This document shows, piece by piece, positions 4,880 to 40,600 of a stretch of DNA of 64,000 nt. The stretch's first letter is position 1; each line of letters starts with the position of its first letter. Below the pieces are notes generated by a model. It made no database searches, had not been told where the DNA came from, and worked only from the letters and a program-made list of their open reading frames with translations. Source of the DNA: Cladosporium halotolerans (taxonomy: Eukaryota); the NCBI RefSeq assembly GCF_011745625.1, contig NW_027191452.1, positions 1,178,001 through 1,242,000 of the forward strand, given 5' to 3'. Position numbers and translations under genes: made by a program.

Positions 4880-5329
4880 CGGAGAGTCGAAGAAAAGGCA
4901 GGGTCACCTGACACAAAAGTCTATCAGGGAATGGCCTGCGTGCACGTAGTGCGTTCGGCGGGAGGGCGGGTAGGCGCAGAGGGAGCACCATTCGAGTGGG
5001 TGAGAGAGCCTCTAGCGCACCGGCTGCCCGCTGCCCGCCCGTGTGGCGTTCGAGAAGCTTCCATCATCAATATCTTGGCGTGGTTGCGATGTCGCCCTCA
5101 CGTGCTCGGTGAAGTGAAGTGTTTCACGCGTCTGTGAAGCATCGCTCGACAAAGGACATCTTCAGTGACATACTCCTCATCATCTGGACCATGCTTGAGA
5201 GCTTGTGAACCAATGGCTCGTGCCATGCCTGCTAGGACTACATACCTACTGTCTTGACGCCCAACATCCGCAGACCGATGATCCTGTGTCTCAGGATCGT
5301 CATCCCGAGCAAAACTATGAATGTTCACT

Positions 5330-10700: not shown

Positions 10701-11208
10701 GTTCAGACGATGAGCGTCCTGGACGTTGACGGTCAAGTTGAGAGTCTCAATGTCGGTACTAAGAACTTGTTAGTGAAGTTCCACCCGGCGAGCGTTGCGG
10801 TTGTGACTCGCCCATAGACGTTGCACTGCATCTTTATCAGCATCTGTGTTCACGCACAAGCCATTTTCGGGTGCTTACAGGCGCGCCTGCCAGGGTCAGG
10901 ATAGCGGAGAACCCAGTCGCGGTCTTCTCAACATCGCTGGCCGTGTAGCCAGGGCACACGTCTTGAGCTTGCACAGCATGAGGGTCTTGCACATTCGGGA
11001 GCAAGTTTGGCCCAATGTCTGCTGATGCAGGTACTGTGAAAGCGTTGCTGAAAGTCGTAGCCGTGCCATCGATGGTCGCCGTAATCACGCTGTTGGTGGT
11101 CGGGCTTCCTGTGGCGGACCCAGCATATGAGGAAGCGTTCTGTCCCGCAGCAAGAGACGAAGACGCGAGAGCGAGCAGAGCGCTCTTCATTGATCCAAGG
11201 CGCGCCAT
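7748..11208 (-). CDS. Secreted GH31 alpha-glucosidase (AgdA-like), 8 exons; an alternative upstream in-frame ATG lies at 11394
   Basis: Signal peptide MARLGSMKSALLALASSSLAAGQ; spliced motifs CNVYGTDIE, NIYGNHPFY, GFHQCRWGY, IWHDIDYM, catalytic WIDMSE, HWGGDN, GVDTCGF, FYRNHN. Introns at about 10826-10878, 10759-10811 (GC-AG), 10285-10339, 9803-9858, 9397-9449, 9219-9276 and 8591-8690. Confidence 0.93.
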
Positions 11209-21333: not shown

Positions 21334-22314
21334 GAGAGCGAGAGGCGAGTGGAGTCGATTCGACTCGACGGCACGAAAGGTACGTTGTTTTTTTCACTTG
21401 TTCTGAGCGTTTGCTTTTTTTTTTTTGTGGGGTTTCATCCTGCGGGTTTTGGCATGGCGCGGAGCGTGTCTTTTTGGGACAAAGGGCCGACTAGTTGGGA
21501 TAGATCGGGAGAGAGAACAACGACGACGACTCTGTTTTTGCATTTCTGAGCGAGCAACATGGGCACGGGTGGCGCAAACGGTGGCGGACCGGGGACAGCG
21601 CCGGCTCGGGGCACACGAATTGGACGAGGGGCATGTGGCGTTTTTTCATTTTTGTTATCTCTTTTTCCCTTCTTCTCGGGGTCGCTGGCCTACCGGTTGC
21701 AAGAAAGAGGAGATGTATGAAGGAGGGCATAGCGACTCCCGTCGTGGTTCTAGCAAGCGGGGGACATGGTTGCGCATCCTTTGCAGCTGGCGAATGCCGC
21801 TTTCTACAACTCAACCGCATTCTCGACGACCCCTCTCCGACTGTCTCCGCCTTACGGGTTCTTCTGGACGGCATGTCGCGGAGTCGCGCTCACGCGGGCT
21901 TTTCACAACTTTGCGGACTGGAGGGCGGGTTTCCTGTTTACGATACGAGCTGGTCAGGTGGTTGTTCATGATGGGGTCGGTGTGCACACGGCGGTGAAAA
22001 TCAAAATCAAAATCAAAGGTACGGTCAATAAGAGGACGAAGGCGAGGCGCGGCGAGAGAGCACGAGCGAGGAGGGAAACGGGCGCGCCGTAGTGCACACT
22101 CCAGTCAGGATTAAGGTAGTGAAATGACTCAGTGACTCAAAATCTTTTGATGGTCGTTTCCTTGTGTTTTTCCTCGCTGATCGTAACGGTCGTGGCACGA
22201 ATACCCCTTTCACTTTGGCTTCCCCAATTGCTTGACTTGCGTCCGTCTTAGATGTTCGCTCTCGTCCTCGCCCTCGCTGTCTCTGGCTATCCTACATTGG
22301 CTGAGGCGGGATAC

Positions 22315-23920
22315 TTACGACTTGTACACGTGGATGACGTGAGGGTTGCAGAAGGCCTTGAGGCCGTCGGTGCCCCATTCGCCGCCGATGCCGCTCTCCT
22401 GGTGATGGTGTTAGTATGTGCTGGGTCCATGACAGTTCATTTATGTGGGCTCTTACCTTGTGGCCACCGAAGATAGCCTGAGGAGTCGGCTTCTCGAAGG
22501 AGTTGACGAAGACAGAACCAGCCTCAAGGCGCTTAGCAATCTTCTCGGCGTGCGCGACGTCCTTGCCCCAGACGCAGGCGCCGAGGCCAGTGAGGGTGTT
22601 GTTGGCGCGCGCGATGACCTCCTCCTCGTCGGACCAGGGCTGCGTGGGCACGATGGGGCCGAAGGGCTCCTCGGAGATGATGCGGCTCGCGTTGGGAGGG
22701 TTGTCGATGATGGTCGGCTGGATGAAGAAGCCCTTGCCCGCGGCGACGGACTCGGCGCCCACGGCGAACTTGTACCCGTTCTTGCGCGTGTCGTCGAAGA
22801 ACTCCTTGACCTTCTCGTACTGCATCTGGTTCTGGATCGGGCCCAGCAGCGAGCCGGACTCCGGCGCGCCGACCTGGATCGTCTTGGTGAAGGCGACCAT
22901 CTCCGCCAGGAACTCGGCGTAGATGCTCTCGTGGATGTAGATGCGCTTCGTGGCGACGCAGACCTGGCCGGAGTTCTGGAAGGCGCCCATGACGACCTGC
23001 GGCGCGGTCTTCTTGATGTCGACGTCCGGCAGGATGATGGAGGCGTCGTTGCCGCCGAGCTCGAGAGTGACGCGCTTCAGCGTGCTGGCGCACGCGGCCA
23101 TGATCTTCTTGCCGGTGGCGATGGAGCCGGTGAAGGAGATCTTGGAGATGCCAGGGTGGGCGGTGAGCATTGGCCCGAGCTTGTCATCGCCGCCGACGGC
23201 CTGGACGACACCGGGCTCGTAAATCGACTGGGCGATCTCGACGGCCTTGAGGGTCGTGTAGGGGGTGAAAGGGCTGGGCTTGACGATGATGGTGTTGCCG
23301 GTCAGCAGAGCCGGGATGATTTTGCCCATGGAGAGGACAAGCGGGAAGTTCCTGATGCAAGTCAGATTTTGGTTTGCGTCGAAGATTTGTCAAATCCGAA
23401 AGCGAGGGTGTGTAATACGCACCAGGGGCAGATAGCACCGACGACACCAAGAGGGGTGAAACGGGTGGTCAGGATCTTCTCATCATCCTCGACACGCTCC
23501 TCAGGGAGATCGAGAGTCAGGTGGTGGCCAAAGAAAAGAGGGACGGCGTTGACCTCCCAGGAGGCGAATTGGCGCTGTCAATGGTCAGTTAATGCTCACA
23601 TCCTTTTGGGAAAAGAAGCAAAGTTGGCGCACAGGCTTGCCGGTCTCCTTGCAGAGAAGGGTGGTCATTTCCTCGGAGTGCTTGGACCAGGCCTCGCTGA
23701 ACTTCTGGAGGAGCTCCTTGCGCTTCTCAATAGGCGTGAACCTGTACTTCTCGAACGCCTTCTGGGCACTCTCGACGGCGTCGTCGACATCTTGCTGGGT
23801 CGCAATGGGGACGGGGTAGGACTGCTCGCCGGTGGACGGGTCTACACCGTAGTGCTTGTTCTGGGCATCGCGGGGCTTGCCATCGATGATGTTGGTGAAA
23901 GAGTCCCACTGAATAGACAT
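22315..23920 (-). CDS. NAD(P)-dependent aldehyde dehydrogenase, 4 exons (introns about 23576-23632, 23352-23422, 22399-22457)
   Basis: Spliced motifs KETGKP, PWNFP, FTGSIATG, LELGGND, catalytic GQVCVA, EEPFGP, FGGHKESGIG. Confidence 0.92.
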
Positions 23921-26027
23921 GGTGGCGGATAGAAGAATGATTTTGGGAGGTGTTGGGTTGAGAGGAAGGAAAGTCTAAGGTCTGTGTAGACCTGGCGGCT
24001 GACGACCTTTATGTGAGATAGACACCTTCCAAGGACCCGTCGCGGCGCTAGGTTGAAGTGGTTCAAACGGTTCGGCAGCATTGCATTTGCGTGCACCGCA
24101 TGGCGGGGCATGGGGCTGGCTCAGAGGGGTCGCATTGGGCCGAGGGTCCTCGGTGGGGCAACGTAGGCCCCATCCCGGCAATCGTTCTTGTGCAATTGTG
24201 GCGTAGCAACCGCGGCTTCACTTCCCCCCACGCCATCGTCTTGTCCTGCCCCGAAGATATGCCCGGGCATACAATGTCTGTTCACAGACACTTGTGGTGT
24301 GCAGTGACACGTTGGATGGCAGCACGGTGGACAGCTCCGTGGCAGCGCGCGCACTTACGAGTCTGGACTGCCAAAGGATCAGACTAAGCTGTCGGAGCCC
24401 TCAAGGAAGACCCATCAGCCTCATGCACGCAGGGGTTCTAATGCAGGGCAGCTGATTCCACCGAGTAATGTGCGAGAAAGAAGTACGGGCACTCCAGCTC
24501 GCTTCAAGCCTGCTGCTTATGAAGCTGACAATCGACAAGGGTGTCGTATCTAGGCGGACGAATCCCCTGTTCTGGACACTCGCAGCACGCCTAAAGCCAT
24601 GGGCTCAACTTGAGACGAGCGCTGACAATCTTCAAGGGCCAATGCTCTCTCGTTGCATTGATCGCGCAGGGGCAAAGCCTTGGCTTGATGCTGTGCAGCT
24701 GTAGATTCGCGAGATGTTGCACAGCTGATGAGAGATCGCAAGTGGTGCACAAGATAGCATACGCCGTCCTGGATCTGCTAATACATGCGGCATAGCATCT
24801 AGCCTCGCATCAATCCATAGCTGCGGAGAACTTCAATGACTCAGGTTCTGGATGTGCCAATCGCGTCTCGCTCAGACTGAGCTACGGTCGCTTGCAGTGA
24901 GAATCACTGCTTATAACGCACGAGAGGCACAGATCTAGGAGAATCAATGTGAATCAACACCGCTTGGCCCCAGTGCAATTGATGTTCATTGCACTCAATA
25001 TCTTGCGGCACAAGTCGTTTACGCCTATGGCGCTTAACGCGGTCAATGCCAATGAGACCAGACCGGGGTTGAGTGTACACTTGGGAAGTCAGAAGCGTAA
25101 GGATTCGAACTCTCAAGAAACACAAGTGATACAGAGCCATCACGCTCGAACCTCGCCAAGCGATATTCATAATATACCTTGACAGCATTGCTTGTCCGAA
25201 AGCTTGCAGCGTTCTCTGGTGGGTAAATTTGTTTCAGTAGCAATCGTGATCTTTGAGGCAAGCAGAGATCAGACGCTTCCCCACCTCTCTTGACATCTCC
25301 AAAAAAATACCTCGACTATCTCAAATCTACAGGAGATCACTAGAATGCGCCCACATTCTTCATCCAGAAAGCGGTGGAGCAGGCAACTGACCAGTCCTAA
25401 CGGGAGTCAGAGCTTCGCGAGCGCCGTTTCGCCAGCACCGCCGGCCCCCACATGGTCGCGGTGGGCAAACGCCTTGACATCATCGCGGACCAAACAACCC
25501 CTGCAGTTCACCACGCGAACAGCACACCGACGCCATCGCACTATCCGCGTGTGCATAAACTTGGCGTGCGCTCCAACATTTCCCGCCGCTCCCAAAGCCC
25601 TCCATCATTGGATTGGGCTGCGCTGACCGTGTCAAACCTGCCTAGTCAAGCGCCGCAGCGCCCATTACTCTATCGCGCAGATCGTGAAGATGCGGTGTCC
25701 GTCTCGCTGGCTTCCATTGCATACCGCTTGACGAGCGTAACATACTTGTCCCGTTATTTCCAATTTTTGCAGCGTTCTGTCCCGCGTAACACATACCCAT
25801 ATCGAGCTCCTATTCCATGATCAATCGTTCCATCATATTTCACAGCTTACTCCGCGAGAGCCGACGCTTACATCATTGACGCATGCCCAGAGCTTGAATA
25901 AGAGAACATTCGGCGGTCACAGGGACGAAATAACATCAAGAGTTGGGAAGAAGAGTGTACCCGGCTCTCATCTTTGGGAGAGGCGGACAGAGCCATTGCA
26001 TCTGTGTACACAGGCACCTCCGGCACG

Positions 26028-26744
26028 ATGTTCCACGCAATCCGCGAGTTGCCGTATCGCGTCCTCGTCATGCTGGTCAATATCTTCTTCCCGCCGCTGG
26101 CGGTGATGATGCTGACTGGCCTGGGCGCCGACACCGCCCTCAACAGCTTGCTGTTCCTGCTCGCCGTCATCCCCAGCCATGTGCACGGATTCTATATCAG
26201 CTGGGTGTACTTCTGGCGGCGAAGAAAGGTAGGATCTTGCCCCTCTTGCTGTGCCCGAGACTGATCCCACAATTGACCGAAGCTGATATGAAATGCTGTT
26301 TAGGTCAGGAAGGGACGGTACCCCGGTGGGCCAAAGAGCTTCATTACTTCAAAGGATGTGATCAACGGAGGCTTGAGCGACAGGGAGGTCGCGCGGTTGT
26401 ACAAGCACGACAAGCTAGAGAGGAAGAGCAGCCTACGCAGCGCCAGGAGCAGGAGCAGGAGCGGATCGCGGGGGCGGGGATGGGACGAGACCGCACGCGA
26501 GATGTTGCACAGGCGGCCTGAGAGCAGGGGAAGTAGCAGAGCAGGTGCTGACGCGCATGTTGGCAGGCTGAGGAGGGCGGGAAGCCATCGCAGTGTAAGA
26601 TCTCATGGGCGGGAGAGGGACTTTGAGAGGGAGAGGAGATGGGCTGCACAAGTCGCTTCAGACGGGTACGGACCGGTGCAGGTTCCGGGGAGCGAGGCTG
26701 GATCGAGCGTAGGTCCTGGGAGATGGTCAATGGACCGTATATAG
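26028..26744 (+). CDS. Pmp3/UPF0057 proteolipid-family membrane protein with Arg/Ser-rich tail (intron 26229-26303)
   Basis: LVNIFFPPLAV...NSLLFLLAVIPSHVHGFYI is Pmp3-like; splicing gives RRRKVRKGRYPGGPK and continues in frame to 26744. Confidence 0.75.
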
Positions 26745-27042
26745 TAATGTCGCAGGACGTTGCCCTAGAGCTGTATCCTTGCCTCTCCAACCGAGCCTCG
26801 GGTTTCAACTCTCGATAGGCATCACTTCATGCCCTATGCCCAATGATGTCTGATAGCGCCGACGACCACCCCCACGTGAGCGCTTATCAGCCGGTTTGAG
26901 TTCGATGGACAAGCGGGGCACGATGAACGTCGGAAGCCACCCGACCTCCATCTCTCGCACGCGACACAACCCGAGATAATCTCGAGCTTGCCAGACAGCT
27001 GCATCGGTTCCGTATTCCGAAAGTCGTTCGAGCGATGTTGCT

Positions 27043-29663
27043 ATGGCAGGATCAAGCTCTCCCGCTACCGGCCACCGCCGGACGAGCAGCGGCGTGAAGA
27101 AGCGAGGCAGCGGTAGGGTGACTAACGCGTGCGTTGCCTGATACAAGCTCGTCCGGTCCGTCAGTTCAATGCTAATGTTAATGGGATAGATGCGAACGCT
27201 GTCGACGTCAAAAGATTAAATGCTCAGGCAAAGAGCCTTGTGACGCTTGCCAAAAGAGAAGATTGTTGTGTAATTTCGATGAGCAAAATCAAAAGATTCT
27301 TATCACGCGAGAGTCTGTACAGCCGATTCGAATTGCTGGGAATCCCATGCTAAGATATTGTTAGGCAACTAGCTCAACTTGAAAGAGGTGTCCGACGTAG
27401 CTCGGATGCTGAAGTGCGCGCACGCACAGACAGTCAGTCTAATGTTTTGGATTCCGTGGGCCTTCACACAGCTCTGACTGATGCTGCCCTCAACCTTCCT
27501 GCGAATATTCTCCCTTCATTTGAGAATACGAGTCCGACCGAGAATGGTCTGATTGAGCAGACTCAAGCTCAAGACCCTCCGAATGGCACTCGGGCAACCA
27601 CACCGGACGATCCGGCCCGACTTGGAATCGATCTTGTTGCCGAGACTGAACATGATAGTTGCAACAGAAGCACCACTGGTGACAATCACTTCACGAATCC
27701 CTTGGTGAATGGGCCACCAGCCTTCACCGCCGATGAGTTCGGCCAACAATGTATGTATTTCAACCCGCTGTAATCTTGTATTCGATGTTTGCTGATCCAG
27801 TTTACAAAGCTTACCTCGGAACCTCGTCAAACTGGTCGTTCGGTAGACGCGTACTCGTCATGGTCCATGAGAGTTTGTTCGGTCTAGCCCCTCCTCCAGG
27901 ACGATTGCTTTTCGAAGGTCAAGCATACGATGTCGATTGGCGAGGTGCCAGCGTAGCCAGCATGAACGAGCAAAGTGCGACGGTGATTCTGCCGACGACA
28001 GACTTTGCTTTGTTCCTGATCAACACCGTCAAATTCCGCTGTGGGCAGCTGTTTCACCTGTTCGACGAAGAAAGCTTCATGCAGTCTTTCAGGAAGTTTC
28101 ACAGTAACGAACACCCTAAGGAGCCTGTCGGAGCGCTGTGGTATTCACATTATCTCCTCCTACTTGCTCTGGGAAAGGCTCTGGTCGTAGTGTTCACGCA
28201 AGGAACGAAGCCTCCGGGATCCGAGCTGTTCGTCGAAGGCATGCGGACGATGCCTGACGTGGGTTTGACAGCTTCTGAGCCTATACAGTGCATGGAAATC
28301 CTGTGCTGCGCAGCACTATATCTCCAATGCCTTGACAAGCGTAAGGCAGCCTACAATCAGGTGAGTGATCGACCTTCAGTCTTCTACCAATGCTCTACTA
28401 ACGATCTAATGAGATCGGACGAGCGTTGAGAACCGCGCTTGTCGAGGGCATGCATACAGACATGCGGAATCGAAACCTCGCAGATCCAATGAGAGAAAGG
28501 TGTCGCGAGATCTGGTGGACAATCTACATTCTCGACTCGCATATGTCTGCTCTAATGGGCGTGCCTCAGTCTCTCGCAGAACACGACGTTACGGCTCCTT
28601 TGCCAGAGTTCGCCGCGTCCACTTCAAAATCACTGGCTCTGGGAATACATGTCAAATTGGCGAGGGCAACGTCTTCGATTTTACAGAGTAAGCAAATCGT
28701 TCCAGGCAAAAGCCCTGGATCTTTGACAGGCCTGTCGCTGACGCCACGTGATAGCGATCTATGGAGGGGAAGGCCGTGACCCGAGCAGATTCTTGCACAG
28801 CATCAAAGCTGCTTTACGCAACTTAGCGAACATCCACGACGACCGAGTCGCGAGCTTCCGCATCCATCTTGGTAACAGCAGCATATCCCGGCTCTCTGCT
28901 TATCTTTTGCTATTCCAACATCAGGTAATGGTCTTCTGACCCTGCTACACGAAGGTCATGAGCTGAAGGGCGTATCGACAGTGCATCATTCTCGCCACAC
29001 GACCTTTGCTATTCCATTTCTGGCAGCGAAGACTGGCCTCAATGCGGACAGTGCATATAGCTTCGTCTGGGGGCGCCAGATCTCTTGTTCGAATCTGCCT
29101 GGGAGCAGCACAGCAAATCTTGAGGACATTAGAAGTGCTGCAGTCCCAATCACTTCTCGGTATGATGCCCCTGACCCGAAGCTAGTGATTCATGGCTGAT
29201 CTCCACGACAGAAAGCCTAGTACCGTTCGACCTGGAATCGACCTGGTCCGCGGCAGTCGTTATCCTCGTTGCGAACGCAGTCGACTCGTCACTATCCAAG
29301 AATAGTGAAGAGCTTCTCCGAATTGCCTACGCCGTTCTTTCGGAGATGGTCGCACGGGGAAACCGCGTTGCAGCGTTCTACAAAGAAGAACTCGAGCTGC
29401 TAGAGCATCATCTGCTCCAGCTGGCTTCCGGACTTGGTGCGGCGGGAACGGGCCCGGCGAGTAATAGTAATAGTAATAGCGACGGTGCTGGGGCTTTCGA
29501 TTCTGTCCTCTCGACCGGAGGTGGGTCGCTGCAGGAGTGGTATTTTGATGATGGCATGATTGATGGCGAGCAGCTGATGAGAGCGGCGGATTCGCTCAAC
29601 CTCGACGCGTTTCAGTGGTACACTGAAGACTCGCTCGAGGGATTGGATGCATCGCTGCTGTGA
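27043..29663 (+). CDS. Zn(II)2Cys6 transcription factor, Put3/PrnA-like, about 8 exons
   Basis: Spliced cluster ACERCRRQKIKCSGKEPCDACQKRRLLC followed by linker QKILITRE; YLGTSSNWSF; fungal TF middle homology region (EIWWTIYILDSHMSALMGVPQSL, HQCIILATRPLL, PFDLE); acidic C-terminus. Introns at about 27129-27189, 27313-27364, 27751-27800/27809, 28361-28413, 28688-28755, 28925-28981 and 29160-29211. Confidence 0.88.
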
Positions 29664-29795
29664 TGTATGTGTGTAAAATTCTCATGATACTTGAGGCGAA
29701 GATACTATCAAGTCTCTCAACGGATATCGATTCTAGTTCATCCAAATCATGATTCATGAAACACATAAACTCCAAATCCCACAACCTAGGGAGAT

Positions 29796-31266
29796 CTAAA
29801 CCCGGAACCTCACCACCGCCGCCGTCCTCCGTCTCAGCTCGCCCATATACGCAGCATACCCATCCTTCATCCTCGCCGTCCCGCCCGAGTTCTCCACTGC
29901 ACGTCGCAGGAGGTACTGCATACATTCCTGCACCGAGCCCCAGGTCAAACACTTGTAGACGCGCGGCACCATAGCGGCCCCATTTTCACGTAGTCCGTCG
30001 GCCCGCTGCAAGATACTGCAGCCCAGCTCGTCCGCCATGCCTTGCAGCTGGGCGAAGGTCGGCTTCACTTTCAGCTTGCCGGCCGCGGAAAGCGTCTGCA
30101 TGAGGTCGATCGCGGCGCCGACGGAGGCGGGGTTGTGGCCGGCGAGGAAGAGTTCTACTTTAGGAAGCTTTTCAGGCGGGAGGTCGAGGTTTGTTCCGGA
30201 GAGTAGGTCGTGCACGATGCCGTTGTAGGAGGCGTCAGTGTCTTCCTTCGTGTCATGGATGCGTTCTCTCGGGTCAGAGTCGATGTACGCTCCGCGGACG
30301 AGTTTGATGGCGAGCGTCCAGCCGCCTTGTTTGGCAGCGGCGAGCTGGGCGTTCAGTTTGAAACGGGAGGACTTCAGATATGCTTGCAGGGTGTTGTACA
30401 CCAGCACTGAGCCGTTGACGTTGTACTTGCTCATCAAGTCGACCGTCCAGCGATCGATCCCGTCCTGGACGACTTGCTGCTCGGAGTCGATCCAGATGCG
30501 GCATCCTCGGGCTTTGGCTTTCTCGCAAATCCGGTCCATTGCGTCGACCCATGCGGCTGGAGGCTCTTCGTCGCGCATGAGTGACTTCGTTACTTGCGGA
30601 CCGGCGCCCGTCAATCTGGATCAGAAGTCAGCGAAGCGCTCGCCGAAAGTCGAGGACCACTAACTTGATTCCCATCCAATCCCCCTCGTCCATCATGTCA
30701 AGCGTCTCCAGGTTCCCCTCCCTCCACCGCCCGACCTCAGCCTTGAGCTGCTCCTGGCTCCCAGCTTTCGACCCATCGATCTCCCCCACGCCCGTCTCCC
30801 TCCCATAGCAAAGCACGATGCCCTCGAAACCAATCCGCTTGATCTCCGCTTTCGTCCTATCGATCTCGCGCTTGTTCGTCCCCGCGCAGAAGTGGTTATA
30901 GATAAACAACTTCACCGCGGCCCCGAGCAGCGGGTTCGCGTCCGGGTTGAGGAAGACGGATTTGGAGTTTGCGATCGTCCGCATGACGGACAGGCCTGGT
31001 TGGAAGAGGTAAGGGGAGGAGAACCAGGCGCCGAGGATGAGGTTCCGGAGCAGGTTTGAGGTTGGGAGGCGGTGCAGGCATTGCGGGCTGGTGGGGGCTT
31101 CGGATTGGTTTTCGAGGCTTTTGCGGTGGATGGCTGTGGTGGTCGTTTGGGCTACAGGGCGTTTGAGGGCGGCGGATGTGTGGAATGGGGACGCATGGAT
31201 GAGTTTGAGGAAGGGTGGCGTGCGGCGGTGGAGTGGCATTTTGCTGGTTGTTGCGGACCTGAGCAT
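29796..31266 (-). CDS. put1: Mitochondrial proline (or hydroxyproline) dehydrogenase, Put1/PrnD family (intron 30616-30664)
   Basis: Basic presequence; YNHFCAG, IWIDSEQ, YNTLQAYLK, KLVRGAY, LAGHN, FAQLQGMAD, YLLRRAVEN. Confidence 0.92.
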
Positions 31267-31650
31267 GCTGTTGAAGAGCTCAAGTAAGTGGTGTAGTTGA
31301 TGAGGTGATGTCGATACGGTCAACAACCAGCATCGATCCTCCGTGAATATCGACAGAAGCCAGAAACCATCCCGTTATCACAGAGCTCTTTGTAGATAGC
31401 CATATCAGGACCACCCACCGACAAACGATCCCCCCGATCGAACCGAGCAGGCCGGATCTGCCGGCGAAACCATCGAAGCGAGGCAGCAAGGCAACCTGGT
31501 GCTTCCCGAAGCATATCAAGCTTTCGATGACAGCTTGAAAAGAAATAGCCGTTTCGAGAAAAGCGGTCCCGTGGCGGGATAGCAATATGCCGAGAAAGGA
31601 AGGTCTGCTTGATGCTGGGAGCCCATGATACGGTACGGCTTCTCCAACAT

Positions 31651-31701
31651 CGGACGGCTTCCCGGGGAGTGTCACGCGACAACTGAACGGCTGCGTGGCC
31701 G
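31651..31701. promoter_or_regulatory. Two CGG-N8-CCG inverted repeats upstream of the proline dehydrogenase gene; candidate Zn2Cys6 binding sites
   Basis: CGGacggcttcCCG at 31651-31664 and CGGctgcgtggCCG at 31688-31701. Confidence 0.5.
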
Positions 31702-32190
31702 ACGTGGGGAACTTCTCTGATCGTGTGTGGAGAGCTCGTTTCTGTTTTGGACGCGGAGACCGCGATTGCGTTGATCATACTCGAACATTTTTGTGACGCA
31801 TGGTTGACACGCACAGCTCGAGAGGAGGCGTGGTCTTCCATCGTCGTGACACGGCCGGCTTGGACGCCCGCTGGAGTCTCCTAATATTGATGCGTGATCA
31901 CTCTCTTTTTGACACGAGAAAACAACTCAAAAGGGCCATGGTCGCATATGTCTTATTATCTGCATGACTAAGCCGTTGCATTGCTACGTTTTAACGTGAG
32001 CAAACAATCCTATCGATCATTTACCCCAAAGAAACCAAGTCTACCGTCACACATCGCATTCGGCAACCTTTCGATCACGACCTTCTGTTACACCTTTTTC
32101 TTCACAAAGATCGTCTGCCATAAAGCCGTCTCGCTCGCATCAACAATCTATCGACCTCATTTCCCCCAATGTCCACCCCTCCCCAACTCA

Positions 32191-33999
32191 TCAATAATTA
32201 CTCGGATAAAGCACATCCCCCATCTTATTATACTCCTCCTTCAGCGTCCTCGGCGCCACAAACCGCTGCAGCAGCCCCACGCTGCCCGCCTTATCGCACG
32301 TGCCGCTCGCCCTGCTCCCGCCAAACGTCTGCTGCCCGATGACCGCCGCCGTGATCTTGCAGTTGACGTAGAAGTTCCCCGCCGCGTAGCGCAGCCTGTT
32401 CTCCGCCTTGCGGATCGCGCGCTGGTCGTTGGCGAAGATGTTGCCCGTCAGCGCGAAGCCGCCGCCCTGCCGGTCGATCTGGGCGAGGACGGCGTCGAAG
32501 CCGGCGTCCGGGTAGACGTGGGCGGCCAGCAGGGGGCCGAAGAACTCGGTGTCGAAGATCGGGTGGGCGTCGTCCGTGGTCGCGTAGAGCGTCGGCGAGA
32601 TGTAGTAGCCGACGGAGCCGTCGTAGGTGCCGCCGACGATGGTTTCGAGGCGGGGGTCGGCGTTTGCGGCGTCGATGGCTTTGCTGACGCGCTCGAAGGC
32701 TTTGCGGTCGATGACGGGGCCGGTGAAGGCGGTGAAGTCTTCGGGCGGGCCGACTTTGACGCGCGCGAGCTCCTTTTTCATCTCGGAGAAGAAGAGCTGC
32801 GCTTGGCTTTCGGGCAGGTAGATGCGCGAGCAGGCGGAGCATTTTTGTCCGGCGTACTCGTAGGCGGCGCGGATGGTGTGGCGGGCGGCTTCGGCGATGT
32901 CGGCGGAGGGGTGGACGAGGTGGAAGTTCTTGCCGGACGTCTCGCCGACCATGCGAGGGAGGTCGCGGTACTTCTTCTCGCCTACGCCTTGGGCGGCTTT
33001 GGCGTAGAGTTCGCGGAAGACGTCGGAGGAGCCGATGAAGCTGAGGGCTGAGAATTCGGGGTGGTCGTAGACGGCTTTGGTGATTGTTGGCGCGTCTCCG
33101 TTGACGAGCTGGATCACGCCTTCTGGTAGACCAGCTTCGAGAAGGATGTTGTGGACAAGCTGGCTAGCATAGGCAGTCATAGGCGCGGGCTTCCAAATAA
33201 CGACGTTGCCCATTAATGCCGGGGCTGAGACCAGGTTGCCGCCGATAGCAGTGAAGTTGAACGGCGAAACAGCATAGACGAAGCCTTCAAGCGGCCGCCA
33301 GTCCGTCCGTCCATGATGACCAGGCGAGTTGACTGTCGGCTGCTTGTCGTAGATCTCTTGAGCGAAGGACACATTGTAGCGGAAGAAGTCGGCCAGCTCA
33401 GCAGCGGCGTCGATCTCAGCTTGCCACGCATTCTTGCCCTGACCGAGCATTGTGGCTGCGAGAAGCTCGAAACGATATTTGCCAGTCACCAACTCAGCTG
33501 CTCGCAAGAAGATCGAAGCCCGGTCGTGAAACGGCATGTCTTGCCACTCCTGCTTCGCGGCCAGGGCGGTCTCGATCGATCGTTTGACGTCGGCTTCCGA
33601 AGCTGAGCCATATTCGGAAAATGTCTTTGCGTGCTCCGCAGGGAGATGAGTGGGTGTGAGGGGCTTTGAGGAGTCTACTTTGGCATCGCGGCCGCCGATA
33701 GCAGGGACTTGCTTTGGTAGTTGCGAGCGAAGTGTCTTGAGTGCTTTTGCCAGATGCTCACGCTCTGGCGAGTTGGGTTCAAAATGCAGCTATGAAAATG
33801 TCAGTTGTCTGCGTGAAAAATTGATGGTATTTCGAGTAATTCCTACGTTTGGTTCATTGAATGCTTTTGGAACTCTGTAAGTGCCGGAAGTCAAAGACCT
33901 GACTCCGTACGTCGCTCCGGTAAGATGCAGCTTGGTGTTTGAGCGGCCAGCATTGTTGCGAAGGACGGCACCGATTCGTCCTGCACTTGTGAGCCTCAT
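32191..33999 (-). CDS. put2: Mitochondrial delta-1-pyrroline-5-carboxylate dehydrogenase, Put2/PrnC family (intron 33790-33846)
   Basis: Arg-rich presequence; AFNEPN; GQGKNAWQAEIDAAAEL, SPFNFTAIG, GETSGKNF, catalytic YAGQKCSACS, EFFGP, FGGSRASGT. Confidence 0.94.
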
Positions 34000-34090
34000 G
34001 ATCAATCCTGAAGTGGTTGTATGTGTTGTGCACACAGACATGCCTTCTTTGCATGTTATCGTATAAAAGTGCCGGAGCTCTGATTACCAT

Positions 34091-34167
34091 CGGGTCGCTT
34101 GCCGTCGCCTGGTGGGTGAACGCTGGCTTGAAGCCAACGTTCGCGGTGCCGTCGGATGCGCATCCGA
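34091..34167. promoter_or_regulatory. Two CGG-N8-CCG sites in the divergent put2/oxidase promoter, one of them a perfect 16-bp palindrome
   Basis: CGGgtcgcttgCCG at 34091-34104; TCGGATGCGCATCCGA at 34152-34167; GATA motifs nearby. Confidence 0.55.
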
Positions 34168-34413
34168 TCGATCAACCCCCACACGATGGGGCAGGAGCTC
34201 ATGCATGCGGGGATAGCGATTGAATGCATCTCGATATCGGATGATTGTACGCAGTGCATAGCCGTCTGGGCCTTGATAAAGGCGAAAGGTGTTGCGGGAT
34301 GTGACGTCTGTGAATCATTCGCGCTTGCCTCAGCAGCGCATTAAGCTGCTTTGTTTCTGATACTGACTGTGTCCGCCTAATTCTGTGAACCAAGAAAACC
34401 GCCACAAACGAAG

Positions 34414-35778
34414 ATGCTCACCAAAGACTCACCCGTTATAATAGTCGGAGGCGGAGCATGGGGCCTTTCGACGGCACTTCACATGACCGACGCAGGCCAC
34501 ACCAACATCACCGTCTACGAGCGCGCCGAACAGATCCCCTCGCCGTATTCCGCAGCCTGGGACATCAACAAGATCGTCCGCGCAGAATACGAAGACCCTT
34601 TCTACACCAAGCTGGCACTTGTAAGCGATGATTCCCCACCTCCAGCAGAACAAGAAGCAAAATCTGATCCAAACCCACAGGAAGCAATCCGCGGATGGAA
34701 AACGCCCCTCTTCGGCCCCTACTTCCACCAGACCGGCTACGTCGTGGCCACGACCGGCCGCGCCCCGGCGAAGGCTGTCGAGCACCTGGAGAAAGCCCTG
34801 CTCTCAGTGCAAGCTGACCCGGCGTTCGCGCCCGGCATCAAACGCCTCTCGGGCGCCGCGGACTTCAGAGACTACACGTGGCAGTACTCGGGCCCGCTGA
34901 GCGGGTTCAAGGGCTACTGGAACCGGCTGGCGGGCTATGCGCACTCTGCTGATGCGCTGAGGGGTGTCTGGGAGCACTGCGCGAGGCGGGGCGTGAGGTT
35001 TGTGCTTGGGGAGGAGGCGGGGAGGGTGGAGAGGATGGTCTACCAGGGCAGGAAGTGCACTGGTGTTGCAACTGCGGATGGTCAGACGCATGAGGCGGAG
35101 TTGGTGATATGCGCGCTTGGCGCTCACGGCGCGAGCCTGCTGCCTGATTTGGGGAAGTTTGTTGTTGGGCGGTGTTGGTCGGTGGCGCATGTGCAGCTGA
35201 GCGAGGAGGAGACGAATTTCCTTCGCGGCATTCCGACGACGAATGTGAGGGATTTGGGCTTCTTTTTCGAGCCGGATCCGAAGACGCGCTTGTTCAAGCT
35301 GTGTCCACTCGGTGTTGGCTACACGAATACAAGATCGGATGGCGTCTCTTTACCGCCGCCGGATCGCTTACCGCCGCCGCAAGACTTCATCCCGGCCGAG
35401 GACGAGAAGAAGTTGAGGCAGCTGCTTCGGGAAACGTTTCCCTGGATGGCGGAACGGCCGTTCGTCGAGCAGAAGCTCTGCTGGTTCGCCGACACTGCGG
35501 ACTCAGAGTACTGCATCGACTACGTGCCGGGAACGGACAATTCTGTTGTCGTACTGTCTGGCGACTCGGGTCATGGATTCAAAATGATGCCCGTCTTCGG
35601 CAAGTGGGTGGTCGATCTCGTTGAACAAGGGAAACAGAGCCTGGCCCGCTGGCAGTGGAAGAGTCCCGACAAGGCCGACACTAACTGGGGCGATTCTGTA
35701 AGCTGGCGCATTGGGAAGGGTGCCGAGTTGAGAGATCTCCTAGAGGCGAAGGACAAGCTAGTTCGCGCGCGCTTGTAG
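34414..35778 (+). CDS. FAD-dependent amine oxidase of the sarcosine/L-pipecolate/fructosyl-amino-acid oxidase family, probably peroxisomal (intron 34621-34680)
   Basis: VGGGAWGLSTA dinucleotide-binding motif, SAAWDINKIVR, CWFADT (candidate covalent FAD Cys), GDSGHGFKMMPVFG; C-terminal -ARL matches PTS1. Confidence 0.9.
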   Translation: MLTKDSPVIIVGGGAWGLSTALHMTDAGHTNITVYERAEQIPSPYSAAWDINKIVRAEYEDPFYTKLALVSDDSPPPAEQEAKSDPNPQEAIRGWKTPLFGPYFHQTGYVVATTGRAPAKAVEHLEKALLSVQADPAFAPGIKRLSGAADFRDYTWQYSGPLSGFKGYWNRLAGYAHSADALRGVWEHCARRGVRFVLGEEAGRVERMVYQGRKCTGVATADGQTHEAELVICALGAHGASLLPDLGKFVVGRCWSVAHVQLSEEETNFLRGIPTTNVRDLGFFFEPDPKTRLFKLCPLGVGYTNTRSDGVSLPPPDRLPPPQDFIPAEDEKKLRQLLRETFPWMAERPFVEQKLCWFADTADSEYCIDYVPGTDNSVVVLSGDSGHGFKMMPVFGKWVVDLVEQGKQSLARWQWKSPDKADTNWGDSVSWRIGKGAELRDLLEAKDKLVRARL

Positions 35779-37514
35779 GTGTGTCCCTTGGTAGGCTCAG
35801 AGTAGGCGTCGAAAAGGTCCAATAGTGAGATACCGTAATGCCCTCTTCGGACCGTTCGCCGTAACCCAAAAAAAAGTATAGCTGCAGAGCTTGCCGTGCT
35901 TCGAGAATCACCGGGACCTCTTCCATTAGCGCAGCCACAGGGAGCCTTATCGCGCGGCTCTACAGATTGTCCGACCGAGGACTTACAACGTCATGCCGCC
36001 GATCAGAGGATGTGAGCGACGAACGCCCACCACGTGCCTTCTCCTCTGGGACCCCACCTGCCGGCATTACAAATTCGGAAAACGACTGGAAGATCGTGTC
36101 AAGCGTCCATAGATGCATTTCAGCCCCACGCTTGCAACTCCTGCACGATAGGGCACGGGCAATATAAGACTTGGTCTAAGACAGTCTCGACGATGTCTCG
36201 TCCCTGAAGCTTGTACAGTACAGGGGCACTCATAGAAGCACAGAAGGATCCCAAGGAGGAGTGGACACCCGGTGTGCCGCTGACGGTTGAAAGGGCGCGA
36301 AGGGGCGATTTGGGCGACAATCGCAGCACCCCGGAATCTGCGTGCCGATCGTCGGCCTTACTGTGCCCCACGCAGCGGAAAGGAAGACTCGCCATTTGCG
36401 CGCGGCCAGACTCTCGGCCGGTGACGAAAGTCTGCCGGGAGGCCAGGCCTGGTACCCTTGCAGAGTCATGCAGAGGAGCCTGAGGGTGCCGCTTGACTCG
36501 CCACCGTCAGCTGGACTTTCGGCGACGGCGAGCGCTGGATGCGTGCAGAGTTTTGAGGCGGATGTGCCTCCCATGTGTCGACGGAGCGATGTGTGGCGTG
36601 GCACGGCGCACGACGCGCGAGAAGCAGAGGCAGAGGCAGAGCCCTGTCTTGCCGGGCGGGTGTTCCTGGCTCTGAAAGCTCACACGGCGGCACGCAAGGC
36701 AAGCGGTGCCCCCAGCGCCGCAACATGCGACTGCACGACTGCATCATCGGGCGGGCAGCAGTGGTGGAGGGCGGCGATGGTGGGTGGGACCAGACGTTCT
36801 CGAAGGACGGCGGCATGGGCGGCCGGTGCTACTGCTGCTACTGCGCCATCGCGGTGGGCGAATGGCGGATGCCTGGCGCGGATGGCTGCCTCAGCCGGCG
36901 CTGCACGGGCGCTAGCGCGGGCTCGCCGGGCGATCTGGACGGCTCTCGCAGACGACGCTGCCACCCTGCGCCTTGCGCTGCTGCGCCTGGGCGTCGAGCG
37001 CCCGGCGGCGAGTGCAACAACACGAGCGCCAGTCGGTCCGCAGGGAGGCAGGCGGCGAGGCAGGCGGCGTGTCAGGCTGCGAGCATCGCTGCCCCAGGCC
37101 GGCCAGTCACGCCTCGCTCGTCCATCCCTGTCGCCGCTTCATCTCAACTGTCTCGTGTGTCTCACGTCTCCTGCCGCCGGCGCGGCCAAGCGTCCACCCT
37201 CCACGCCGTCTGGCCCCTCACGCCGTTGGCCCACCCACCCGTGCCACCACCACCGTGCGCCATTCCACACTACCGTGACTACCTTCATCCTGGCTCCTCT
37301 CTTTAAAGTTGCCCGCCCGCCGTGTCCTGCAGCTGCGCGGCCCGCCTGTCAATCCCACGACAATCCCATCCCACCTCCACGCAGATCGGCATTCCCATCC
37401 TCTCTTTCATGCCACACCTCACATAAACCACCACCGCCGCCAGCCACCTGCGCACAGCTCACTCCAGAGCACCGTCTGAACATCCCCGCACACACTACCT
37501 ACACAACCACCACC

Positions 37515-38276
37515 ATGTTCGACGAAAACTTCACCTTCTCGCGCTCGCCCTCGTGGGCCAGCACCGACACCTCCCACACCCGCGAGCCCTCGCGCTCCGT
37601 CTCGCCCTGCTCGCCCACCTTCTCCCTCCCACCACCGCAAGGCTACTCCGTCACCGACCTCGCCGCCGACCTCGACCGCCAGCGCATCCGCCCGGACGCC
37701 CGCATCTGCTACCAGTCCTGCCACTCCTACGCCAACACCACCGACGACGACTCCGCCTGGGCCATCCCGCCCAGCGGCTCCGACTCCGAAGGCGACGCGA
37801 CCTACTACAACTCCAGCCGGCGCCGCACAGCCAGCAGCACAACCCTCTCGCGCTCGCGAACGGGCCCCGCGCGCTCCTACTCGCCCACGCGCCGCGCCGC
37901 GCGCCAGAGCGGCACCCGCATGCTGTGCGCCTCGGGCGCGCACGCGAAGGACATCGCCGCGCTCGTCGCGCGCATGGTCTCGGCCTCCGACCAGTGCTCC
38001 GTGGCCGCGCCGCCGGACAGCCTGCCGCGCGCCGCCGCCGAAGCCGAGGAAGCGGACGACGAGGGCTACAACTCCGCCGGCGGCGAGGAGGCCGGGTCGG
38101 CGTGCTCGTCGCGGCGCAACACGCTGTCGAAGCGCAATTTGGACTATAGGCGGGCGCTGGATTCGAGGACCGGGACGGGCGCGGCGGCGATCTCGAAAGA
38201 CATCCGGTTCCGCGGCGCGAAAGACAAGGGCCACAGGCGGCATAGGAGTTCGGGGGAGAAGGGCGGCGTCGCGTGA
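37515..38276 (+). CDS. Hypothetical Ser/Arg-rich fungal protein (253 aa)
   Basis: Strong Kozak context caccATG; marked GC3 codon bias; MFDENFTFS...SVTDLAADLDRQRI...DIAALVARMV...DQC; family not recognised. Confidence 0.7.
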   Translation: MFDENFTFSRSPSWASTDTSHTREPSRSVSPCSPTFSLPPPQGYSVTDLAADLDRQRIRPDARICYQSCHSYANTTDDDSAWAIPPSGSDSEGDATYYNSSRRRTASSTTLSRSRTGPARSYSPTRRAARQSGTRMLCASGAHAKDIAALVARMVSASDQCSVAAPPDSLPRAAAEAEEADDEGYNSAGGEEAGSACSSRRNTLSKRNLDYRRALDSRTGTGAAAISKDIRFRGAKDKGHRRHRSSGEKGGVA

Positions 38277-39030
38277 AGTCGTGGTCTCGCGATGAACGCC
38301 ACGACCTGACGAATCTCCTTTGAACTCTTGACTCTAACGTGGAATGATGACTTATGGGTAGCGAAGGCGCTGGGGGAGTTTTGCTTGTTTTTTTTTGTTT
38401 TGTTTTTATATCTGTTGCCTATTTGCAACCCCTGTCTCTGGTTGCGAGAAGAGTTCACCACACAGCCGCGCCGAACCCTCAAGAGGGCGGCTGAGCGCGG
38501 CTACACTAGATTCTTCGTAGATTGTACATATCGAATCTCACCAGCCTCTCCTGTGTACCTGTTGCCACAGGCTGCGGAGAGGGATTTTCGAACGCCACTG
38601 TTTCCTCCAGACCCCTCTTCACGTTTCTCCCTGGTTGGTCGTGTGAAAAATCGCCACGTGTGTTGCAGCATCCAGGCGTGCAGAGGTTGGTCGTTGCGAG
38701 TCCAGATTCGTTTCGGCCCTGTTTAATCCCTTCCGCGTAGGATCATTCGTCGTACAACTCCATTCCGCACCGGGTCTGATTCGCGTCTCCGCTAGTCTTG
38801 GGCGATGGCTTTCGTCCGGTGCGCATCCGGCAGAGTGGCTTCTCCCCGGCGGAGCCCCATATCAGAACGCCGCATCTGCTCGCCCCGTCCAGTCTTGCGC
38901 CGGAAGCCTAAGAGGTCCACCACGAAATGTGCTTCCTCTCGCCTGATAAGCCACGGACACAACGCCCAGCTGTCAAGCACACCTTGATTCCCTTCCTTGC
39001 ATCTTTCCTCGTCCTTTTCTCATTCACCCT

Positions 39031-39786
39031 TCAATCGACCCCACCCCTCGCCCCCTCCTCCCAAACCTCCGCCAACGTCCTCCCCTCCCGCCGCGCCCTC
39101 TCCTTCTGCACAATCCGATCCGGCTTCTCGCCCTTCCGCCAGTCCCAGCAGCTCAGCCCCACCGTCGGCACCCGCCGCGCCAGGTCCTGCTGGATCACGC
39201 TCTTGCCGTCCACCGCGAAGCGCCCGTGGTACTCGCTGCGGTCGATCGCGTCGCGGAAGGAGGTGTACGTCGGTTTCGCGGTGAGCTGGAAGATGCGGGA
39301 GGGCTGTGGGGTTGGGGCTTGCGTGGGCGCGAGGAAGGGGAGGGAGGGCGAGGCGCGGGGTGGGCGTGGGAGGGAGCTCGTCGAGAGGGAGCGGGTGGCG
39401 GGCATGCCGAAGGGGCCTTTGGGCGCGGCGGGAGGAGGAGGAGGGGAGGATCGTCTGGTCGGTCGCGGGGTGGGTGCCGGCGCGGGGGCGAGGTGTTCTT
39501 GTGCGTCGACGGCGAGGTTGGTTTCTTCAGGCTCGGGCTCGGGCCCGAAGTGGAAGCGGATCGGGCTGCGCTTGAGGCAGGCCTGCGCGGCGGCCTCTTC
39601 GCGGAAGATCACCAGGCTGGCGTTCGGGTGCGGGTGCGTGTCGTACTTGAGGTTCTTGAAGTACTCGACTTCGCCGAATTGTGAGAGCAGGCGGAGCACT
39701 TCGCGCGATTCGTTGATGCTGGAGGGCCGGGGGAAGAGGCGGAGGTGCACCGCGCGACCGGCGGTCGAGCGGGCGAGAGAGGCCAT
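39031..39786 (-). CDS. Hypothetical protein with degenerate RRM-like N-terminal fold, possibly mitochondrial
   Basis: gccATG start; RAVHLRLFPRPSSINESREVLRLLSQFGEVEYFKNL...ASLVIFREEAAAQ resembles the RNP2/RNP1 arrangement; coding-like codon bias. Confidence 0.65.
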   Translation of the reverse strand: MASLARSTAGRAVHLRLFPRPSSINESREVLRLLSQFGEVEYFKNLKYDTHPHPNASLVIFREEAAAQACLKRSPIRFHFGPEPEPEETNLAVDAQEHLAPAPAPTPRPTRRSSPPPPPAAPKGPFGMPATRSLSTSSLPRPPRASPSLPFLAPTQAPTPQPSRIFQLTAKPTYTSFRDAIDRSEYHGRFAVDGKSVIQQDLARRVPTVGLSCWDWRKGEKPDRIVQKERARREGRTLAEVWEEGARGGVD

Positions 39787-40600
39787 GGCGGGTGCTCGAG
39801 GGATGGAAATGGTTGCGATGGCCTTCAATGGAATTCATGCACGTCTGAAATGCAGGCCGAAGCACGCGGCTCAAAGGCCGAGGCGGGATGCGGGGTGCGC
39901 GTCGTGCTGCGTTGTACGCAGTTGGTAGACTGCCTCATTCCATCCCGGTTGGCCACCGCCCTGCGATCACGATGCTTGGGTACTATCTCCGATCAAGTTA
40001 CCTTGCTCAATTCGCAGTGACATTAGACGTAACCCAGGCGAAGCTTCGATGGATTGACGACAAAGAAGACCAGCCGTAAAAGCTTTCGAAATGGAGGCTA
40101 CGTACTTCGTGAGAAACCGCTACATGATCCCACAATCGAGGCCAACAGGTCCTTAAAATGACACAACCAAGGGCTTGAGACTACATGGACGTGCTTTGAT
40201 AGGCTGTCACTCCAAGCTGAGCCATTGATGGCAAACGGAAATTTCACAATGGTGCTGGGCGGCGATATCTCTCGCCGCTTACCTTTTCGTGACTATAGAG
40301 TCTTCACGATCAAGCATCAGCAACTGCTTTTGGTACAGCACCACCGAGTCACCACGCCAAAGCGAACAAGACACAAGTGTTCTTTGCTAGCGGTAAGGTC
40401 ACCAATTGCCAGGGTAGGTATGGGAAAACAATGGAGTTCGTTCAAGAAACAAACGATGCCGGATGCGGCGATGTCCGACATACAACAAAGCCATGTCAAC
40501 ATGGCTTCCCTGATATCTCCTGCGTTGCCATCCTAGATGACTATAACCCAGAAAAATATCAAGAGATCCCAAACACGTGGCTCAACAGCTCACGATCATC

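Follow-up and report, generated by a model that had tools for sequence, protein, structure and literature searches.

Results

Gene content and transcription of the locus

We analysed a 64 kb window of the Cladosporium halotolerans genome, the window being the whole stretch of DNA at its full length. Positions 27043-35778 hold a cluster of four genes, coding for a Zn2Cys6 regulator, a proline dehydrogenase (PRODH), a pyrroline-5-carboxylate (P5C) dehydrogenase (P5CDH) and a flavin oxidase (Table 1). An earlier note, made from the letters of this DNA alone, had proposed four adjacent genes, and gene models, splicing and Pfam matches confirm that they are real, adjacent and spliced as modelled. 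P5CDH and the oxidase stand back to back with exactly 414 bp from ATG to ATG, the length the note had given for their divergent promoter. The regulator and PRODH converge, and 132 bp separate their stop codons (29663-29796).

The cluster is transcribed. All ten modelled introns are absent from the contigs of sequencing run X3, which are 95-99% like the window, and spliced transcripts of all four genes were found together in this one run. All seven introns of the regulator are out in an X3 contig, with three joints shifted by a few bases and two not GT..AG as aligned, and one GT..AG model alone gives an open frame. The PRODH intron (30616-30664) and the in-frame, 60-nt oxidase intron (34621-34680) are spliced out in X3, and the P5CDH intron (33790-33846) is spliced out both in X3 and in the RNA-seq runs X2 and X15. 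Read depth in the runs cannot rank the genes, and uncovered stretches in X2 and X15 are no evidence either way.

Two of the contigs run across gene boundaries. A single 4114-nt X3 contig covers the regulator and PRODH with the introns of both strands removed, which indicates that the 3' ends of their transcripts overlap. A 2766-nt contig from X2 (window 33847-35024), from which the P5CDH intron has been removed, continues through the shared promoter into the oxidase and retains the oxidase intron. It could represent a long P5CDH leader, an antisense transcript of the oxidase gene, or carry-over of DNA into the library.

Table 1. Coordinates of the genes and candidate regulatory elements of the cluster (window positions)
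Feature	Position	Strand	Details
Zn2Cys6 regulator	27043..29663	+	8 exons, 739 aa; PF04082 E 7.7e-9
PRODH paralogue ('PRODH-X', clade A)	29796..31266	-	2 exons, 473 aa; PF01619 E 3.9e-47
P5CDH, ALDH4 type	32191..33999	-	2 exons, 583 aa; PF00171 E 1e-90
FAD oxidase	34414..35778	+	2 exons, 434 aa; PF01266 E 3.8e-31; C-terminus -ARL
Divergent promoter common to P5CDH and oxidase	34000..34413		414 bp; conserved blocks in 5-sequence alignment
Perfect palindrome CGGATGCGCATCCG	34153-34166		candidate site of the cluster regulator
Degenerate CGG-N8-CCG	34091-34104		aligns with relatives' first palindrome copy; half-site sequence lost
Block GCATGCGGGG	34203-34212		invariant in 5/5 aligned sequences; holds GCGGGG word
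Two CGG-N8-CCG sites upstream of PRODH	31651-31664, 31688-31701		pattern scan
CGG-N7-CCG	26931..26943		about 100 bp upstream of regulator ATG; candidate autoregulatory site

Conserved linkage in relatives

Metagenome contigs were scanned once with an alignment of 26 oxidase orthologues, which gave 64 loci. The oxidase tree has a clade A that includes the window (45 rows) and a clade B (19 rows), each with a Shimodaira-Hasegawa-like approximate likelihood ratio test (SH-aLRT) value of 99, and a third, distant group at 30-36% identity. We counted synteny over 54 clade A and B loci. Sixteen of these have at least 6 kb on each side and represent 12 distinct lineages, an organism recurring in several samples being counted once.

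PRODH and P5CDH accompany the oxidase in all 16 of these loci and the regulator in 14, the two exceptions being a single lineage (L016/L040). Where the total flank was at least 3 kb, at least one partner was present in 31 of 36 loci, and the other five have less than 3.3 kb on any one side. The distant oxidase group had partner genes in none of its ten loci, two of them flanked by 10 kb at both ends. Gene order and orientation vary by lineage, with the back-to-back arrangement of P5CDH and oxidase found only in Cladosporium-type loci, and a linkage that outlasts such rearrangement argues for function. The linkage of the oxidase with the proline genes is not chance. The earlier note had allowed that the oxidase might prove not to be syntenic with the other genes in related species; the opposite was found, as it is linked with PRODH, P5CDH and the regulator across distant relatives.

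The trees of P5CDH and the regulator repeat the deep A/B split of the oxidase, as does that of PRODH except for one locus, L013. There the oxidase, identical to an Aureobasidium pullulans protein, the P5CDH and the regulator belong to clade A and the PRODH to clade B, a discordance that suggests gene replacement inside the cluster. The oxidases of Penicilliopsis, Aspergillus caelatus, Mariannaea, Sporothrix and Pseudogymnoascus nest in the Dothideomycete part of clade A (SH-aLRT 97), which could reflect hidden paralogy or transfer of the cluster between classes.

A proline dehydrogenase apart from PrnD

A PRODH-domain search of 1.8 billion representatives, together with name look-ups, supplied reference proteins including Aspergillus nidulans PrnD (UniRef Q9P8H9). 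PrnD falls into a clade (SH-aLRT 98-99) whose branching roughly follows species order and which holds the Paecilomyces 'PrnD' and proteins of Zymoseptoria, Baudoinia, Zasmidium, Dothistroma, Fulvia, Aureobasidium and Cladosporium fusiforme. Outside it, the PRODHs linked to the cluster group in a clade of their own (SH-aLRT 95-96), itself divided into A and B. Constraining the window group, chosen with the tree already in view, to join the PrnD clade lowers the log-likelihood by 171.5 units (approximately unbiased (AU) test, p 4.5e-6). The PRODH of the window shares 42% identity with A. nidulans PrnD and 37% with the C. fusiforme protein of the PrnD clade. By these comparisons the cluster PRODH is a paralogue and not the PrnD orthologue.

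A canonical PrnD-type copy is thus present in a congener, C. fusiforme. Among the matches listed, ten species or genera have both an oxidase orthologue and a PrnD-type protein: Zasmidium cellare, Dothistroma septosporum, Lecanosticta acicola, Pseudocercospora eumusae, Meristemomyces frigidus, Hortaea werneckii, Elsinoe batatas, Polychaeton citri, Myriangium duriaei and, at genus level, Cladosporium. The possibility raised in the earlier note, that the clustered genes are the only copies, therefore does not hold for PRODH in these relatives.

The best solved matches of the P5CDH are entries for mitochondrial P5CDHs (4oe4, E 9.5e-160; 3v9j, E 1e-143), and the ESM Atlas gave a family-level match only. 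The protein is 61-67% identical across distant loci. In their first 45 residues, which are rich in K, R, S and T, PRODH has seven K+R and P5CDH eight, and neither has any D+E. Judged from this composition, the mitochondrial presequences that the earlier note had claimed for both enzymes are plausible.

The oxidase

Among solved structures the oxidase is closest to Amadoriase II (3djd, E 4.8e-65), followed by Amadoriase I (4wct, E 1.4e-62). A DAO-type FAD fold with an N-terminal GxGxxG is present and the alignment to 3djd runs end to end, whereas monomeric sarcosine oxidase matches at E 1e-6 and over the C-terminal part only. On these alignments the oxidase belongs to the fructosyl-amine-oxidase (Amadoriase) branch of the sarcosine/pipecolate oxidase superfamily. 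The sarcosine/pipecolate type named in the earlier note was thus right for the superfamily and wrong for the branch (E 5e-65 against 1e-6). What it shares with PIPOX and monomeric sarcosine oxidase is the superfamily (PF01266), a probable covalent FAD, a type 1 peroxisomal targeting signal (PTS1) and, presumably, action on secondary amines or imino acids; in sequence it is distant from them.

Homologues are numerous, with 795 proteins at E <= 1e-10, and the best 120 of the 795 are 55-96% identical to the oxidase. Those listed come from Dothideomycetes, Eurotiomycetes, Sordariomycetes, Leotiomycetes and lichen-forming classes and are annotated as 'FAD dependent oxidoreductase', 'sarcosine oxidase', 'L-saccharopine oxidase' or 'oxygen oxidoreductase'; we found no characterised member of the clade among them. 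Full-length homologues have 434 aa. The closest named relative listed is from Cladosporium inversicolor, at 85% identity for the unspliced reading and 89% for exon 2. One orthologue of 434 aa with PF01266, from Paramyrothecium foliicola (P0097), carries the source name 'amino acid transporter', which is probably an annotation slip.

We compared the pocket with that of Amadoriase II, taking the residue roles, including the fructosyl contacts of a Trp, a Glu, a Gly and a loop Arg, from an excerpt of PMC5459902. The equivalents of Cys335, Trp236, Lys276, Gly364 and Arg411 are kept. The FAD-linking Cys, in a CWFADT motif, is invariant in clades A and B, and from this aligned residue we would expect a covalent FAD. 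The fructosyl-contact set is incomplete: Trp, Gly and Arg are retained, and the equivalent of Glu280 is lost, being Leu in all 14 A-clade sequences (of 15 shown) that have a CPLG motif and Met in each of the 11 B-clade sequences. With Glu280 replaced, a sugar substituent seems less likely than a non-polar one. The oxidase thus resembles the Aspergillus fumigatus Amadoriases I and II and the fructosyl peptide oxidases in its end-to-end alignment (E 5e-65), its FAD-linking Cys, its flavin-facing Lys residues and its pocket Trp, Gly and Arg. It differs from them in the Leu at the Glu280 position, in forming a clade of its own that is at least 55% identical across at least five fungal classes among the matches listed, and in being linked to PRODH and P5CDH in the 16 loci with long flanks.

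The PTS1 consensus is (S/A/C)-(K/R/H)-(L/M). The peroxisomal tag -ARL, which the earlier note had read at the end of the oxidase, closes all 15 A-clade sequences read to their C-terminus, the window included, and B-clade oxidases end, where read, in -AKL, -SKL or -SKI. The oxidase is predicted to localise to the peroxisome.

Regulator and promoter elements

The regulator has the Zn2Cys6 spacing C-X2-C-X6-C-X5-C-X2-C-X6-C, and its orthologue in L001 matches PF00172. It had been called Put3-like. The description holds for the general Zn2Cys6 and PF04082 architecture and for nothing more specific.

The most striking element is the palindrome of the shared promoter. In an alignment of the shared promoters of the window and four relatives it is seen as an inverted repeat, CGGATG-N1-2-CATCCG, and the looser pattern CGGATG-N0-3-CATCCG has a single occurrence in the 64 kb window. 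The palindrome is present in the shared promoter of seven of the eight Cladosporium-type loci scanned and nowhere else in those loci, with two copies each in L001, L004, L005, L006, L007 and L008 and one in L010. L002 has none, with only about 160 bp upstream available, and none was found in 18 other loci scanned.

The earlier note had placed the same CGG-N8-CCG motif upstream of all three enzymes. The sites are there, but the pattern is common: the window has 37, against 26.05 +/- 4.65 in shuffles, and two of 100 shuffles reach 37. Poisson estimates from the density in the window give p of about 0.025 for two sites in the 414 bp and about 0.10 for two sites in the 924 bp upstream of PRODH. 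The bare pattern is too frequent to carry any weight by itself, and the four sites (34091, 34153, 31651 and 31688) have no one common sequence. Upstream of PRODH it occurs in five of five aligned relatives, conserved in neither sequence nor position, and an everted ATCCG...CGG pair about 200 bp upstream of the gene is better conserved there. The palindrome, unlike the bare pattern, exceeds chance.

A CGG-N7/8-CCG element also stands at the aligned place before the regulator in all four Cladosporium-type sequences compared (the window, L001, L006 and L008). We infer that the cluster regulator binds the palindrome and the CGG-N7/8-CCG sites. Put3 sites have an N10 spacing and the PrnA site is CCGG-N-CCGG, so the candidate site here, CGGATG-N2-CATCCG, is spaced differently from both.

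The consensus for CreA/Mig1-type repressors is SYGGRG. The GCGGGG words at the locus fit it and CreA may bind them. Beside the word in the invariant block of the shared promoter, a further one lies in the regulator promoter at 26900-26920 (AAGCGGGG), where it is conserved in four of four sequences.

Accessory genes in related clusters

We compared the neighbouring open reading frames (ORFs) of the long loci with Pfam and the PDB. A P5C-reductase-like gene occurs in L014, L016, L019, L053 and nearly all clade B loci, an amino acid permease recurs among the relatives' clusters, and L016 has a mitochondrial carrier. Ten clade B loci and L013 share a conserved membrane ORF between PRODH and the oxidase (among them L030 8087-8872, L025 8215-8985 and L013 3615-4373). 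It codes for about 255-275 aa with a number of hydrophobic segments, matches no Pfam family and may be an organelle transporter for the pathway.

Two further enzymes of the relatives are an aspartate aminotransferase (AspC match, E 1.4e-78) and an aldolase of the dihydrodipicolinate synthase (DHDPS) family. The aldolase has matches to 3qfe (E 2.6e-135), a fungal protein without a known function, which we take to be from Coccidioides, and to human HOGA1, the 4-hydroxy-2-oxoglutarate aldolase (E 8.5e-26). Both enzymes are found in the clusters L013, L016/L040, L025/L027 and L036, and their presence points to hydroxyproline. We considered whether clade A is a proline cluster and clade B a hydroxyproline cluster and rejected this, as the A-clade loci L013 and L016 carry both the aminotransferase and the aldolase.

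In mammals 4-hydroxyproline is degraded by PRODH2/HYPDH, ALDH4A1, GOT2 and HOGA1. The relatives' clusters hold the same four enzyme classes, and the window has the first two only (PRODH and P5CDH). Unlike the mammalian pathway, the fungal clusters add the oxidase and the P5C-reductase-like gene, which have no counterpart in it, and the relatives' aldolase is closer to YagE-type aldolases than to HOGA1. This account of the mammalian pathway draws in part on the abstract of PMC3188589.

A different substrate is suggested by L023, where positions 3728-11110 hold a Rieske oxygenase, a distant PRODH-like gene, P5CDH and a clade A oxidase side by side. The Rieske protein matches the carnitine monooxygenase CntA (E 3e-35) and 3vca (E 1.6e-28), presumably a stachydrine demethylase, and the PRODH-like gene groups with an Aureobasidium melanogenum 'FAD-linked oxidoreductase'. 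An oxygenase of this betaine type suggests N-methylproline or stachydrine as the substrate. Bacteria, according to an excerpt of PMC3950512, convert proline betaine to N-methylproline and then to proline for PutA by means of a Rieske demethylase and the flavin N-methylproline demethylase HpbA. With its Rieske protein, flavin amine oxidase, PRODH-like protein and P5CDH, L023 has the same order of chemistry as this excerpt gives for the proline betaine/hydroxyproline betaine route. Unlike the bacterial route, the flavin step would fall to another protein family and the fungal route would be divided between organelles, and the window has no Rieske gene. In A. fumigatus gene tables a trio similar by name comprises Afu8g06440 (fructosyl amino acid oxidase), Afu8g06450 (Rieske protein) and Afu8g06460 (C6 factor).

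The Cladosporium-type cluster is a bare four-gene core. In the window itself an amino acid permease was found neither as a PF00324 match among the 36 longest ORFs nor by tblastn with the relatives' permease.

Discussion

On balance we favour the view that the cluster is a dedicated catabolic module, with its own regulator, for a proline-type imino acid other than or besides L-proline, and that it is distinct from the prn/PUT system. The second pathway apart from prn proposed in the earlier note is largely upheld in that the PRODH is paralogous and a canonical PRODH copy exists in a congener. That the oxidase is an integral part of the module is supported by the linkage.

What binds the palindrome, in which compartments the enzymes work, in what order they act and on which substrate can be stated only as a proposal. 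The Zn2Cys6 factor would bind CGG-N7/8-CCG elements, the clearest being the CGGATG-N2-CATCCG palindrome, and would turn on P5CDH and the oxidase jointly, PRODH as well, and probably itself, with the CreA-type GCGGGG words perhaps contributing carbon repression. Given its likely covalent FAD and its PTS1, the oxidase is proposed to work in the peroxisome, where it would oxidise a C-N bond of the substrate with O2 and yield H2O2. The chemistry of its family is the oxidative removal of an N-substituent from an amino acid. Most likely it would release proline or hydroxyproline by taking off a non-sugar alkyl group, for example the methyl of N-methylproline or of N-methyl-hydroxyproline; it is less likely that it would act on the ring to give (hydroxy)P5C. 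In the mitochondrion, the PRODH paralogue and P5CDH would then carry the oxidation through to glutamate or 4-hydroxyglutamate. Hydroxyproline and N-methylated prolines are the favoured substrates, from the relatives' accessory genes together with the chemistry of the enzyme family.

Several points weigh against a module for an imino acid other than proline. The relatives' accessory genes fit the modified imino acids that the earlier note had listed as candidates, but the window and L001-L009 have no aminotransferase, aldolase, reductase, permease or Rieske gene. No gene of the window points away from plain proline, and the substrate remains a guess. Canonical PrnD and PrnC are probably present in this organism, judging from the congener only, and separate copies were seen for PRODH only, so that the clustered P5CDH may be the sole copy. 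The AU test was applied to a group picked from the tree itself. An A. fumigatus array comparing hydroxyproline with yeast extract-peptone-dextrose medium (YPD) showed no induction (log2 0.41 to -2.1) of possibly related genes, namely the second proline oxidase Afu3g02300 and the P5C reductase beside it, a Rieske/oxidase pair and a pair of DHDPS and permease genes. However, the orthology of these genes to those of the cluster is only presumed and YPD is a poor comparator, which makes the array uninformative rather than negative.

The cluster could instead be a plain, working proline-utilisation cluster, equivalent to prnA, prnD and prnC, in which the oxidase is a dispensable passenger like prnX. 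We think this unlikely but take it seriously. Regulator, PRODH and P5CDH are the content of prn, the window and L001-L009 have no gene specific to hydroxyproline or betaines, and P5CDH, highly conserved even across distant loci, may be the only copy. There is also a precedent, as the excerpt of PMC5983819 describes prnX as a proline-inducible, non-essential extra gene of the cluster. However, the PRODH is not the PrnD orthologue; PrnD-type genes occur in C. fusiforme and, among the matches listed, in ten species or genera with an oxidase orthologue; and neither the 36 longest ORFs nor tblastn revealed a proline permease in the 64 kb. Nor would a passenger be expected to remain linked in 16 of 16 loci despite rearrangement. 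The same linkage, across two ancient paralogous clades with varying gene order, and the conserved palindrome of the shared promoter make it hardly credible that the oxidase is a chance neighbour unrelated to the proline genes, an idea that the generic nature of the CGG-N8-CCG pattern favours and nothing else does.

Two other explanations give the oxidase a different reaction. It might be a peroxisomal L-proline or hydroxyproline oxidase, akin to pipecolate oxidase, that makes (hydroxy)P5C in parallel to PRODH while the relatives' P5C-reductase-like gene buffers the toxic imine. Pipecolate and sarcosine oxidases of the same superfamily do slowly oxidise L-proline, in the window a single promoter serves the oxidase and P5CDH, and the reductase-like gene often adjoins the cluster in relatives. 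The PRODH reaction would be duplicated, however, P5CDH has no PTS1 and looks mitochondrial, and the back-to-back arrangement is restricted to Cladosporium-type loci, which together make this explanation improbable. We regard as slightly more doubtful the idea that it is a true fructosyl-proline or fructosyl-hydroxyproline oxidase, freeing proline that is then burnt. The Amadoriases II and I are its closest solved relatives (E 4.8e-65 and 1.4e-62), and with three of the four fructosyl-contact positions retained (the equivalents of Trp236, Gly364 and Arg411, with roles as given in the excerpt of PMC5459902) an Amadori substrate is still compatible with the pocket, which counts against our preferred substrates. 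On the other side, the Glu280 position is occupied throughout by Leu (clade A) or Met (clade B), identity to the Amadoriases is only modest, and the Rieske, aminotransferase and aldolase neighbours of the relatives have no role in deglycation.

A close known counterpart in organisation is the A. nidulans cluster prnA-prnX-prnD-prnB-prnC. Both clusters combine a Zn2Cys6 regulator with a proline dehydrogenase and a P5C dehydrogenase, both have a divergent promoter with regulator sites and probable CreA-type words (the sites here being candidates), and both include an extra gene of unknown role. They differ in that the PRODH here is paralogous to PrnD and no permease, the counterpart of prnB, was found. 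The extra gene here codes for a 48 kDa, predicted peroxisomal flavin oxidase and prnX for a 40 kDa protein of unknown function, according to the excerpt of PMC5983819. Going by descriptions only, prnX is unlikely to be this oxidase: besides the difference in size, the A. fumigatus tables in the PMC2526178 supplement list a 'PrnX protein' apart from the fructosyl oxidases.

The proline catabolism of moulds is a textbook model of gene regulation and is known as one pathway with one PRODH. Sequence comparison here shows a second PRODH lineage, tied to an uncharacterised peroxisomal flavin oxidase and to a regulator of its own. A wider reading, which we put forward tentatively, is that the Pezizomycotina have an ancient imino-acid module, duplicated at least once and made up of P5CDH, the PRODH paralogue, a Zn2Cys6 regulator and a peroxisomal oxidase from a new clade akin to the fructosyl-amine oxidases. 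It would be an undescribed fungal route for hydroxyproline and N-methylated prolines, with the oxidase as a new demethylase of N-alkyl imino acids and with the substrate of each lineage set by its accessory genes, either aminotransferase and aldolase or a Rieske oxygenase. The open-access literature searched holds no description of the cluster, of the oxidase clade or of a fungal hydroxyproline or N-methylproline pathway; subscription literature lay outside the search.

If this wider reading is true, the substrates would come from plant cell-wall proteins and from osmolytes such as stachydrine and betonicine. A module handling hydroxyproline or methylated prolines would account for the ability of fungi on leaf surfaces and in litter to live on plant osmolytes and on the glycoproteins of plant cell walls. 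The oxidase orthologues span at least five classes of filamentous fungi among the matches listed, and the reading would give a function to the large group of proteins annotated as sarcosine oxidase, saccharopine oxidase or FAD oxidoreductase. It would also add a new enzyme family akin to the diagnostic Amadoriases, with a different pocket.

Neighbouring sequence

An aldehyde dehydrogenase gene at 22295-23389 was considered as a member of the cluster and rejected, as it is 25-28% identical to P5CDHs and has no counterpart in related loci. Beyond the oxidase, window positions 36000-40000 have a G+C content of 0.63-0.67 and long overlapping frames on both strands, including a 661-aa frame without a Pfam match. 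Upstream of the regulator, a small ORF at 25900-26264 looks by eye like a Pmp3 proteolipid. In L006 a PF01679 match adjoins the regulator, and this Pmp3-type ORF beside the regulator indicates that synteny within Cladosporium reaches past the cluster.

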